Positions 42,001 through 45,000 of a stretch of DNA of 64,000 nucleotides are shown here, piece by piece. Position numbers: made by a program. This DNA is from an uncultured Bacilli bacterium (GTDB lineage: Bacteria > Bacillota_I > Bacilli_A > RF39 > UBA660), in contig CARMXJ010000001.1 of NCBI GenBank assembly GCA_949025205.1, positions 12,980-76,979 of the forward strand, in the 5' to 3' direction. Within the stretch, counting starts at the first letter, position 1. Each line of letters starts with the position of its first letter.

Positions 42001-45000
42001 TGGGGCGCAAGAGGAATAGTATTTAATAGTGAAAATAAGATTGCAGTTCTATATAAAAGTATTAAAAACGAATATAAGCTCATTGGTGGTGGAATTGATG
42101 AAGATGAAGATCGTACAAAAGCATTTAAAAGAGAATGTTTAGAAGAGGCAGGATGTAAGGTAGAAATCGACGATTGCTTAGGAACAGTTGAAGAATTAAA
42201 AACATTAGATGACTTTAAACAAACTTCTTATATTTTTGTAGCTCATGTAGTAGAAGATGTAGGTCATACAGCTTTTACTGAACAAGAAAAAGGTGAAGGA
42301 TCAGAACTGTTATGGTTAGATATAGATACAGCTATGAAACTAATTAAAGATTCAGAAGGTAAAGTAGTTGCTTCAAAATATGACAGTGAAAAAAGTGTAT
42401 ATCATACAAAATTTATTGTTAGAAGAGATTATGAAATTTTAAAGTATTATAAAAATCATTTATAATTCAAACTTCTATTATTTAAAAATGAATAATACTA
42501 TAAAAAATTGGTATTTTACTTATTAAAAAAAGTTCTCTATAATATAAAACAATATTTATTGAAAGGGGGCTTTTTTCTATGAATATGCAAAATATTGAAA
42601 TTGATCCATTTGAAAAGAAATTGACAAAACAGCAAAAAGAAAATATTGGATATATTCAAAAAGCTATGAATCGAAGTTTTGAAAAAGAATTTAAAAAAAG
42701 ACAATACAAAGCAAAAAAACAAAATATTGCATTAATAGGATTAGGTCCTCATGCAAAAAGAATTTATTTAAATTATTTTAAAAAACATAAAACAAACTTT
42801 ACTTTATTAGTAGATTTAGAATCAAAGAGAGATTATGCTAGAGAATACTTAAATGAAAATGGATTTAAAGATACTCATATATTTACAATTGATGATTCTT
42901 TAAAAGATAATGATTTATTACCAAAAGAAATTGAAAGCAATTTATTATCAGTATGTAAAACATTAGAAATAACTCATATTATAATTGCTACAGAACCAAA
43001 AGCTCATAATATGTATATTCATTTCGCACTTGAAAATAATTTTGATGTTTTAACAGATAAACCAATCACAGTTACTAAGAATATGACTAGTTTAAGAAGT
43101 ATAGAGAAAGTAAGAAAGCAATATTATGATATTTTAGATTTAGCTAATAAATCAGATGTTATGTGTAAGGTTATGTGTCAAAGACAATATCACAGAGGGT
43201 ACGAATATATAAAAAAATTACTTAATGAAACAGTAAAGAAATATCAGATTCCTATTACTTATATCGACATTTATCATTCAGATGGAAATTGGGAGATGCC
43301 TCATGATATGTTAAAGGAAAATCACCCATACAAATATGGTTATGGTAAACTATTTCACTCTGGATATCATTTTATTGATAATTTAAGCGATTTTATTAAG
43401 ATTAACAATCAATTAAAAGGGAATAAGAAAATAACTAAAGCAGAAGTTTATAGTAGTGCTTTAATACCAAATGATGAATTAAGTATTTTTAACCAAGATG
43501 ATTTTAAAAGAATTTTTAAAGACCAACAAATACCTGAATATTATAATCAAGAAGAATTACCTAAATTTGATAAATTTGGTGAAAAGAACTTTTATGGTTC
43601 TATAAATTTTAGAAATAGAAATAATCAATTAATTACTCATTGTAATATTAATCTATTACATTATGGTTTTTCTCGTAGAGGTTGGATAGAAACAAAAGAC
43701 TTCTATAAGAGTAATGGTAGAATTAGACATGAGTATATCAACATACAAGTAGGCCCACTTATGAATATCCAAGTTCATAGTTATCAATCAAAAGAAATAA
43801 AAGATCGTACAGAAGATATTTCTTTAGAGGAACAAATAGGTGGATTAGAACATTTTGATATTCATATTTATCGTAATTGTGATTTGATTGGCGGAAAACC
43901 ACATGAAATAATTAAACTAGGGGATTTATATACTGATAAAGAAAAAAAGGATATATTGGGGTATAATGAGCTTTCAAGAGAAGTATATATAACTAATTTC
44001 TTAAAAGGAAAATGTGAAAAGGGAGATATTAAGGATCAAGCCTTAGGAATTGAAATATTAACAGGATGTGCTAAGGGAATCCACAATTATTATAAAAATA
44101 AAAGAGTTCCAGTTAATATTGAAGTTAGAAACCAATTCACTTATCCAGTTAATTTAAAGGAATATCGCCAATATTCAGACAAAAGATATATAAATAAAGA
44201 ACGAACTCATATAGAGGCTTATAATGATTTTATTGGAGATTACCAATTTTATATTAGTGCTGAAAAAGTATTAGAAGATGGAACTTATATTGTTTTTATG
44301 TCAATAGATGATGATAAAGATGTAGCTGGTGGACTACTTCAGAAGGTATATAAAAGTGAAAAAATGGCATTATTAAGATTTTATTATCTAAAATTTTTGG
44401 CAAAATATTTTAGCATTAACAAGATTCTTAATATGGTAGAAAAGCAAGGAAATAAAAGGAAATAAAAATGAGTTGCAACATTTTTGCAAGTTTTTTGCAA
44501 CATTTTTGCATGAAATTTGCAAGTTTTTTGCCTAGACATTTCCGTATAGGAGAGTATAATGGAGTAAAATGAGTTAATTCTGCAAAGGAGAGACTCATTT
44601 TTAAATGTTTCTAATTAGTAGCTCTTGACATTTCCAAAAAATTCCATTAAAATAAACAGCAATTTCAGGTGGGTTGGAAACTAGTAAAAAATCAAAATTA
44701 AAGAGACAACTTAGGAGATTAGAAAAGAGACTTATTGGGATTCAGCCTTTAGGTCTCTTTTTGCTTTGAGAGGAGGTAGATTTGATGGATTTGAATTTAA
44801 CATTGAATATGATATACGAATTACCTACAAAAGTAATCAGTATATCAGAAGATCATAGTGAAGATGATGATTTCGTTTGCATGATATCAGAAAGTATCTG
44901 TAATGAATATGATATCGATGATATTAAATCAAAGTTATCTAAAATGTTTTCAAGATTTAATGGACTAAAATTTTACTTTAATGTTCCATTGAGTGAATCT

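Follow-up and report, generated by a model that had tools for sequence, protein, structure and literature searches.

The closest described counterparts of the locus reported here are the direct-repeat sites of the Ltr superfamily of activators in phages of low-G+C Gram-positive bacteria. For RinA, ArpU and LtrC to activate the late (terS) promoter, the 7-nt direct repeats that sit just distal to the activator gene must be intact; repeat specificity within the superfamily is set by the activator's C-terminal part, and the LtrA family is defined by its similarity to region 4 of sigma-70 (Quiles-Puchalt et al., PMC3753634). For phage TP901-1, PMC13123087, which cites Pedersen et al. 2006, describes four imperfect direct repeats that are bound by Alt and extend from −76 to −32 of the late promoter. 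We have analysed a 64,000-nt stretch of DNA from an uncultured Bacilli bacterium (contig CARMXJ010000001.1), hereafter the window, which has a G+C content of 27% and carries almost every gene on the + strand. An array of 11-bp direct repeats (44473..44538, + strand) lies in it at the head of a putative conjugation module. The comparisons described below make it very probable that the array has a regulatory role, binds protein and is coupled to a promoter, P1. They also favour, with less assurance, Ltr/Alt-type activator sites that are placed in register with P1 and are most likely bound by an ArpU-like protein of 177 amino acids (aa) encoded just downstream.

The array was examined by reading of the sequence, by Tandem Repeats Finder and by simulations. 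Units 1 to 3 read TTGCAAcattt, TTGCAAgtttt and TTGCAAcattt, and units 4 to 6 read TTGCATgaaat, TTGCAAgtttt and TTGCCTagaca, the last of which overlaps the −35 hexamer of P1. Within 44466-44545, AAATGAG precedes unit 1 and TTTCC follows unit 6. The hexamers begin at 44473, 44484, 44495 and 44517 (TTGCAA), 44506 (TTGCAT) and 44528 (TTGCCT), and a recount agrees with an earlier note on this DNA that had placed TGCA at 44474, 44485, 44496, 44507 and 44518, and TGCC at 44529, with a period of exactly 11 bp. The run of five or six T residues that the note had put before each core is present before four of the six; unit 1 is preceded by GAG and unit 5 by GAAAT. The note had also located the array correctly between the end of a 628-aa gene, whose stop codon is 8 bp 5′ of the array, and a promoter at 44625, but it had overlooked P1 (44533-44560), which is the nearest promoter.

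Tandem Repeats Finder reported a period of 11 with 5.4 copies and a period of 22 with 2.7 copies and 83% matches. TTGCAA occurs 47 times in the window and at most four times within 60 bp, this maximum being in the array; in 200 second-order Markov simulations the corresponding maximum was mostly two and reached three in five runs. The pattern TTGCA-N6-TTGCA, with no more than one mismatch, was observed 17 times (expected, 6.3 ± 2.8), and nine of these occurrences are inside the array. Moreover, this is the sole site in the 64 kb at which a tetramer containing G or C recurs at least four times at a fixed period of 9-13 bp; nothing like the array occurs anywhere else in the window. Because the counts exceed the simulations and the periodicity is unique, chance does not explain the array.

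P1 (44533..44560, + strand) consists of TAGACA (44533-44538), a 16-nt spacer and TATAAT (44555-44560), and it matched the consensus at 11 of 12 positions in our scan. Its predicted start is at about 44566-44568, which places the array between about −94 and about −30, with the last unit abutting or overlapping the −35 element. Related loci were collected by exact-protein look-ups (L001-L017), by a genome scan with the 628-aa protein (L018-L029) and by a metagenome scan with the family of the 177-aa protein (L030-L045). They represent about 20 lineages, all of them from gut metagenome-assembled genomes (MAGs) or gut metagenomes; L018-L029 are titled 'uncultured Bacilli bacterium' and come from mouse, Hadza human and sheep rumen. 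The common order is a LysR gene, in some loci a NUDIX gene, a gene for a protein of 62x aa (628 aa in the window), the array, P1, a terminator-like hairpin (T1), a second promoter (P2), a leader, a second hairpin (T2), a helix-turn-helix (HTH) gene that encodes the 177-aa protein in the window, and the conjugation genes. This order is kept in every lineage with enough flanking sequence, even where the HTH proteins are no more than 25-28% and the 62x-aa proteins 57-63% identical. As at Ltr/ArpU sites, at least two short direct repeats lie close 5′ of the operon promoter, here and likewise in about 20 lineages. Across the lineages the P1 hexamers and the spacer length are retained whereas the spacer sequence is free, and the −10 element is TG-extended in lineages whose P1 −35 is weak; judged by this comparison, P1 shows the signature of a real promoter.

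For comparison of the arrays, the loci were aligned on the −10 element of P1. All of them contain between four and seven units that recur every 11 bp, or else a bipartite unit of 22 bp. TTGCAA is the core in the window, L001, L005 and L018, TTGCAG in L013 and L016, TTGCAC with CTTCCT in L015, and CTTCCC with TTACAC/TTACCT in L008, L009 and L011. Others are TAAACA (L021), GAACA (L020), TGAACT (L028), TAAACT (L039), AAACAC (L038) and ATACTA (L042), and in L022-L024 and L030-L032 GTTTAC alternates with ATACGA. Inside any one array the G/C-containing core is kept and the spacers vary, and the orientation of the core is the same in all lineages. Cores that are held within arrays, exchanged between lineages and always pointed in one direction are the signature of sequence-specific recognition. 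An action of the array at the RNA level was considered (the folding energy of its transcript is −21.8 kcal/mol, z −3.1) and ruled out, because the fold needs the palindromic TTGCAA core, which is missing in most lineages.

The arrays also have a fixed phase relative to the promoter. The 11-bp periodicity of top-strand C residues lies at a phase of 0.3-2.5 bp with respect to the P1 −10 element in all 19 lineages tested (Rayleigh R 0.94, p ~6e-8), and the 11 lineages with clearly different cores gave R 0.93 and p ~7e-5; kinship among the lineages means that both p-values overstate the independence of the observations. The array sequence has thus been replaced between lineages with its register to the −10 retained. 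Such a register is needed by a factor that contacts RNA polymerase and is not needed by an attachment, origin or partition site, and it therefore favours an activator-type site. The earlier suggestion of a regulatory region at the head of the conjugation cluster is upheld. Differences in length amount to whole units, six in the window and seven in both L001 (98% identical; 3953-4021) and L018 (9896-9965), and this copy-number polymorphism among near-identical strains is consistent with slippage that keeps the helical register.

Arrays of similar design are found in phages. A scan of IMG/VR for four TTGCA motifs at 11-bp spacing returned at least 120 loci. In many of the phage arrays listed the repeats are imperfect, the TTGCAx core being conserved and the spacers free, as in the window. 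Among the matches listed, 21 loci contain an activator-like open reading frame (ORF), and in 20 of them this ORF is on the repeat strand and ends −8 to 43 bp ahead of the array, a count that includes the seed loci of the search; these ORFs encode 11 distinct proteins. They fall into three groups, namely members of the ArpU family, three of which score above the TIGR01637 cut-off; RinA/ArpU-like proteins below that cut-off, all of which match phrog_248 and/or phrog_36; and the Alt-like activator of Lactococcus phage BK5-T (L111 11038-11482). The BK5-T array, TTGCACgtttt TTGCACataat TTGCACgttta TTGCACgaaac, begins 5 bp past the stop codon of the alt-like gene, and four-unit TTGCAx arrays situated 5-43 bp past the stop codons of ArpU-, RinA- or Alt-like genes were found in L055, L066, L078, L082, L087, L110, L111, L112, L115 and L147. 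That a TTGCA core is common to the ArpU, RinA and Alt activator families seems not to have been widely noted. The distance from the last TTGCAx unit to the best −10 is 19-24 nt in nine of the 11 phage loci examined and 21 nt in the window. The phage −10-like hexamers are often TG-extended, and the junction of L055, TTGCATTTACA-17-TATTAT, parallels that of the window, TTGCCTAGACA-16-TATAAT.

In several respects the locus therefore resembles the sites of the Ltr superfamily (PMC3753634): short repeats stand 5′ of the promoter of a long 'late' operon, the protein is small (~110-200 aa) with a C-terminal HTH, the phage TTGCAx cores recur at exactly 11 bp, and the phage proteins and the window protein share the match to phrog_248. 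It differs in the number of units (four to seven, as compared with two to four), in the genes controlled, which specify type IV secretion and conjugation instead of packaging and lysis, and in that the promoter leads at once into a terminator, with another promoter and another terminator behind it; the homology of the window protein is also remote and below the curated ArpU cut-off. Among the ALT boxes of the P335-type phages TP901-1 and BK5-T, those of BK5-T come very close to the array in the core, the period and the start just past a stop codon, but the context is a phage late promoter, and hhalign detected no similarity of the Alt-like protein (phrog_2198) to the 177-aa family (probability 0.2%). 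SARP heptamers and PHO boxes are built of 11-bp units (a 7-nt core and a 4-nt spacer) that are bound cooperatively, the proximal unit overlapping the −35 (PMC5930380). The array is like these OmpR/PhoB-type boxes in having 11-bp units on one face of the helix with the last overlapping the −35; unlike them, it has no linked response-regulator or SARP gene, and the candidate binder has a sigma-r4/LuxR-type HTH rather than a winged helix. In plasmid R388 (IncW), the stbDR repeats are 9-bp direct repeats, (C/T)TGCATCAT, which with 2-bp spacers give an 11-bp period and are arranged in sets of five (bioRxiv 10.1101/2022.04.29.490116). There, too, the repeats lie 5′ of an operon whose first product is an HTH binder, regulate promoters and influence conjugation; however, stbS is a centromere of two sets of five, and StbA is a repressor with an N-terminal PadR-like HTH from a proteobacterial host. 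The 177-aa protein is set apart from StbA by the position of the HTH, which is C-terminal here.

The gene for the 177-aa protein (44785..45318, + strand) is the first after the regulatory region, and an HTH gene holds this place in every array-bearing locus. The C-terminal HTH of the protein is of the sigma-r4/LuxR type. It matched Pfam Sigma70_r4_2 below the cut-off (E 0.0057) and NCBIfam sigma70-ECF at E 2.4e-4, and a profile search of the PDB returned weak matches to LuxR/GerE-type domains and SigF region 4 (E 0.4-0.7). Seven of 14 members of the family match phrog_248, the ArpU PHROG, with a best E of 3e-6, whereas phage proteins above the NCBIfam ArpU cut-off (TIGR01637) match it at 1e-22 to 1e-36. 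The profile hidden Markov model (HMM) of the family picks out a phage ArpU-like ORF that adjoins a TTGCA array (E 1.8e-4). Word-indexed searching put the family at 14-21 proteins and exhaustive HMMER searching at 191 representatives at 50% clustering (E≤1e-3); no Pfam domain was found in the ten remote members scanned. The HTH helix varies between lineages, as the cores do, and phylogeny confounds any comparison of the two. An identity with ConAn1, the antitermination protein of pLS20 (PF17362), was considered and rejected, as there was no such match. The ribbon-helix-helix (RHH) protein encoded next, which the earlier note had proposed as a binder, is likewise rejected as a general one: unlike the HTH gene, its gene is not constant, being undetectable (E≤1) in L016, L020, L022-L025, L038 and other loci that keep the array, and where the protein occurs its DNA-reading beta-strand is identical across lineages with different cores.

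Between P1 and the HTH gene lies a succession of further signals. The hairpin of T1 (44566..44604, + strand) reads AAAAUGAGUU..UUCU gcaa AGGA..GACUCAUUUU and has a U run behind it; the predicted folding energy is −13.1 kcal/mol (z −4.5). It is kept with its U run in all lineages, with compensatory and G-U changes. Since T1 begins at about +1 of P1, P1 alone would yield an RNA of ~37 nt. P2 (44625..44653, + strand), with its −35 65 bp 3′ of P1, reads TTGACA-17-TAAAAT (11 of 12 matches in the scan) and has the form TTGACA-17-TAnAAT in the relatives. The leader of its predicted transcript includes a conserved box, AAACAGCAATTTCAGGTGGGTTGGAAAC (44654..44681, + strand), whose core, CAATTTCAGGTGGGTTG, is identical or nearly so in close relatives and recognisable in distant ones. 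T2 (44722..44767, + strand), an intrinsic-terminator-like hairpin with a U run (−18.6 kcal/mol, z −3.8), is conserved in the relatives and lies directly 5′ of the ribosome-binding site GAGAGGAGG (44768-44776, + strand). The stretch from P2 through T2 (44625-44776) looks like a conditional terminator or attenuator, as far as folding and conservation indicate. An Rfam scan of 44300-44900 at E≤10 gave matches that were all far under the gathering score. A simple terminator scanner missed both T1 and T2, probably because the scanner rules do not allow for an outer loop as long, or a stem as A+T-rich, as those of T1, so that the two calls rest on folding and comparative evidence. Pairing of T1 RNA with the 3′ arm of T2, as in a trans-acting antiterminator, was examined and rejected: z was −1.3 to −2.2 in close relatives only, and distant ones gave nothing. 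P1 and T1 might serve to produce a hairpin RNA of ~37 nt, to insulate against read-through, to stabilise a 5′ end, to load an antitermination factor or to terminate the transcripts of the upstream genes.

In the circuit that we infer, the six head-to-tail units would be recognition sites, one per helical turn and all facing the same side of the DNA, and the 177-aa protein, a remote relative of the ArpU, RinA and Ltr activators and functionally of Alt, would bind them. Occupation of the array by several monomers or dimers would be cooperative, and these would make contact with RNA polymerase at P1. By activation as opposed to repression, the bound protein would switch on or license transcription toward the conjugation genes, P1 and P2 firing and the polymerase passing T1 and T2. 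Because the activator gene itself lies 3′ of both promoters and both terminators, the circuit would be positively autoregulated and could act as a commitment switch. The A/T-rich spacers would curve the array and probably aid wrapping or cooperative binding without being the primary signal.

Several observations weigh against this proposal. The link to the ArpU family is remote: hhalign of the 177-aa family with phage ArpU-like proteins was collinear over 98 columns but gave E 0.0017 and a probability of 15%, the 177-aa protein has no NCBIfam ArpU or RinA match, tblastn of it against the phage collection (E≤1) found nothing, and an AlphaFold2 model from a 10-sequence alignment had a mean pLDDT of 45, unusable for a fold search. 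The phage loci were first picked by eye, after which phmmer was run with eight seed proteins from such positions, and the phage repeats are 3′ of the activator gene whereas those of the window are 5′ of it. Groups with different cores, TTGCAA and CTTCCC/TTACAC, share the HTH helix residues QPIKKS. Linkage to the array is just as universal for the LysR gene as it is for the HTH gene. Finally, P1 already has five of six −35 matches and a perfect −10; such a near-consensus promoter may need no activator. The array could equally be the operator of a repressor, and P1 leads straight into T1.

The last point can be turned into a proposal of its own, in which the array, P1 and T1 form a loading site like that of lambda Q and the bound ArpU-like protein makes the polymerase resistant to terminators. 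Polymerase from P1 would then read through T1, T2 and the terminators of a conjugation operon that exceeds 20 kb; if the protein were missing, P1 would give only the ~37-nt hairpin RNA, and T1 would insulate the operon from upstream read-through. A hairpin with a U run stands between the array-linked −10 and the ribosome-binding site of the first late gene in three phage loci, L055 (~2081-2130), L078 (3282-3322) and L112 (minus strand, past 2278). These promoter-proximal hairpins hint that the phage 'activators' must cope with a terminator, and the similar layout of repeats, −10, hairpin with U run and ribosome-binding site keeps the antitermination proposal alive, although we hold it to be distinctly unlikely. 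If it were true, the ArpU and Ltr 'activators' would be recast as DNA-loaded processive antiterminators in phages and conjugative elements alike, a Gram-positive counterpart of lambda Q.

The proposal of activator sites bound by the 177-aa protein has also to be weighed against readings in which that protein plays no part. A purely structural one would take the phased A/T tracts as a curved, UP-element-like region that stimulates P1 through the alpha subunits of RNA polymerase or through DNA wrapping, with no dedicated binder, the model being the phased A-tracts 5′ of the Clostridium perfringens plc promoter. Phased tracts do lie directly 5′ of the −35, in phase with the promoter and in an A+T-rich Firmicute, and the strong curvature that the earlier note had expected was also predicted by our own implementation of a Bolshoy-type wedge-angle model, which provides a rank order rather than a measured value: the array falls within the top 0.4% of window positions, or the top 0.03% in an AA-wedge-only model. 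In 16 of 20 lineages the array reaches at least the 97th percentile of its own locus (Bolshoy-type model). Curved elements, however, demand neither a G/C core nor an orientation, and here the lineage-specific cores, not the tracts, are conserved within arrays. The T runs of the window become A runs or mixed AnTn tracts in other lineages while the cores are held, so that curvature is likely a helper and not the signal; by this comparison the array does not depend on tracts and phasing alone. L020 (57th-81st percentile) and L039 (84th-89th) have clear arrays with unremarkable curvature, and about ten other sites in the window have comparable predicted curvature. We consider a structural role without a binder unlikely. 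A dedicated binder other than the 177-aa protein could be the LysR regulator, whose gene lies three genes upstream, or else the RHH protein or some host factor, and this we regard as quite improbable. In the LysR version, a regulator that senses a small molecule would couple an environmental signal to conjugation. LysR-type tetramers cover ~50-60 bp, from about −75 to −25, with half-sites ~11 bp apart; TGCA-N7-TGCA can be read as a dyad, and the LysR gene is upstream in every array-bearing locus with enough flank. In most lineages, though, the units are clearly direct repeats (TAAACT, GAACA, TGAACT) numbering four to seven, which ill suits a fixed tetramer and differs from the dyad T-N11-A boxes at about −65 and −35, with a fixed set of four half-sites, of LysR-type binding regions. 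Moreover, TTGCAA and CTTCCC/TTACxC lineages do not differ in the recognition helix, NYNxSQPSLSRNVKLLE, and L019, a locus without an array, has this helix too. The LysR protein is accordingly the second candidate binder, and a disfavoured one; the RHH version is contradicted by the many array-bearing loci from which its gene is absent.

Two further readings would place the function of the array in the maintenance or movement of the element. A very unlikely one is an iteron or centromere site for partition or copy control that also autoregulates the adjacent operon, for which R388 stbS/StbA (two sets of five units), R1 parC/ParR (11-bp iterons) and 22-bp Rep iterons are models. The form is right: at least about five direct repeats with a TTGCA-type core recur at one helical turn, with a 22-bp superperiod at two, ahead of an HTH-first operon with conjugation genes near, and the copy number varies between strains. 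Yet there is one set of repeats and not two flanking a promoter, the HTH of the 177-aa protein is C-terminal, unlike that of StbA, and the strict register to the −10 is not something a centromere needs. No ParA, ParM, TubZ or Rep was found among the neighbouring ORFs scanned, a subset of those of the element, so that in this set no cognate binder or Rep with a motor NTPase adjoins the array; the ParR-like RHH gene is dispensable for it, and the tyrosyl-tRNA synthetase gene in the left flank of L008 suggests chromosomal loci. The other reading, which we find extremely doubtful, is a recombination or transfer site at the element edge, either arm-type integrase/excisionase sites at an attL or accessory sites of an oriT that includes the T1 hairpin. 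Excisionase filaments (P2 Cox, 186 Apl, lambda Xis) typically form on phased direct repeats, there is a conserved hairpin 30 bp 3′ of the array, and a weakly NikA/MbpA-like RHH gene is nearby in some lineages. Moreover, L019 has the LysR, NUDIX and 62x-aa genes (the last product 81% identical) without the array and without the conjugation module, and its homology with the window stops at 44469, 4 bp before unit 1, which favours a 'boundary' of some sort. L019 is the exception, for no break in synteny occurs at the array in six relatives (L001, L002, L005, L008, L011 and L018), whose alignment with the window begins at ~40,840-40,920, passes the array without a break and extends into the conjugation genes. 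Their homology starts ~3.6 kb to the left and crosses the array, and the array is therefore not the element boundary. A second copy, for which the earlier note had proposed a search at the other end of the element, is present neither in the window nor in the 10 kb past its right end (L046-L048). No integrase, Rep or ParA/ParM gene adjoins the array. The nearest recombinase found, ~6.4 kb past the right end in L046, has 283 aa and is probably too short for an arm-binding domain, and no relaxase gene was identified among the ORFs seen. The changes in the hairpin are compatible with G-U pairs and a U run invariably comes after it, as in a terminator, and the register to the −10 would go unexplained. 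On the comparative evidence, attachment, replication and partition are not supported as functions of the array, and the note's proposals of a left functional boundary and of a replication or partition site are not borne out.

To our knowledge, the switch to conjugation is understood in no more than a few Gram-positive elements, among them pLS20, pCF10, ICEBs1 and Tn916, and the present locus points to a different solution in elements of uncultured low-G+C Bacilli of the mouse and human gut and the rumen. Direct-repeat sites for a small late activator are already known from phages. What is new is that such sites would head a conjugation operon in an uncharacterised element family of uncultured gut Bacilli, that their placement would be autoregulatory, that they open a promoter-terminator-promoter-terminator cascade, and that the lineages form a natural series of specific cores in a fixed helical register. 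If activator sites for the 177-aa protein are confirmed, phage late-gene control logic would be linked with the control of conjugation. The oriented core, the 11-bp period and the register with the −10 would then make up a search signature, and the lineage-specific pairs of repeat and activator would offer natural material for studying the co-evolution of DNA-binding specificity.

The left edge of the co-inherited block is another matter. To the left of ~40,840-40,920 the lineages differ, carrying an OmdA-like gene, DUF6019, tyrosyl-tRNA synthetase, Abi_2 or a diversity-generating retroelement (bAvd with a reverse transcriptase), and this position is a better candidate than 44,470 for that edge. 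In L019, a T2-like terminator (GATTTATTGGTATT...GTCTTTTTT; 8215-8300) follows right after the stop codon and unrelated genes come next; a simple insertion or deletion does not account for the L019 junction. Some relative contigs were binned under Bacteroidales or Lachnospiraceae. L018 and L023, both from MAG CAYSFO01, whose bin is labelled Muribaculaceae, are two diverged copies of the whole block, with 62x-aa proteins that are 94% (L018) and 60% (L023) identical to that of the window; contigs of one or two Bacilli have probably contaminated this bin.

The genes 5′ of the array in the window, all on the + strand, encode the LysR-type regulator (40975-41868) and the NUDIX hydrolase (41926-42465), both assigned by Pfam, and the 628-aa protein (42579-44465), which has a weak N-terminal match to a GFO/IDH/MocA-like Rossmann domain in Pfam. 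On the 3′ side, the 177-aa protein gene is followed by that of the 85-aa RHH protein (45350..45607, + strand), which is weakly MbpA/MobA/NikA-like (NikA-like E 0.0012 and MbpA E 8.7e-4, both below the cut-off). Next come genes for a membrane protein, a 1245-aa thioester/SpaA adhesin, the single-stranded DNA-binding protein SSB and a pilin-like protein of type IV secretion systems, and further 3′ those for a pLS20_p028/VirB6-like protein, a VirB4-like ATPase, an M23 peptidase and a primase. By their predicted products, the genes 3′ of the array are a Gram-positive conjugation module. Neither a relaxase nor a coupling protein could be recognised among the ORFs seen, which include proteins of 480 and 320 aa that have no family match, and a BLAST search of 44400-46340 against plasmids in distant mode gave no match. 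The adhesin, with its thioester domain and SpaA repeats (46344-50081), varies from 910 to 1245 aa across lineages through the number of repeats.

Genes for a 283-aa tyrosine recombinase and a small resolvase-like ORF are located 3′ of the conjugation genes in L046 (14576-15427) and L048 (9254-10105), the recombinase lying ~6.4 kb and ~5.2 kb, respectively, past the right end of the window. The L048 strain is 100% identical to the window over 59106-64000. Left of the block, the window has a segment of 1.08 kb (39115-40195) that includes an erm-like gene for an rRNA adenine methyltransferase, and the same segment, at 98% identity, is found past the right end in L048 (5782-6861), where it adjoins an ABC-F gene. 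Since some strains carry this methyltransferase and ABC-F cargo, the switch may have a bearing on how resistance genes spread in the gut. Other strains have a PdaC/polysaccharide deacetylase gene in place of the erm-like segment, which is variable cargo, possibly related to resistance.

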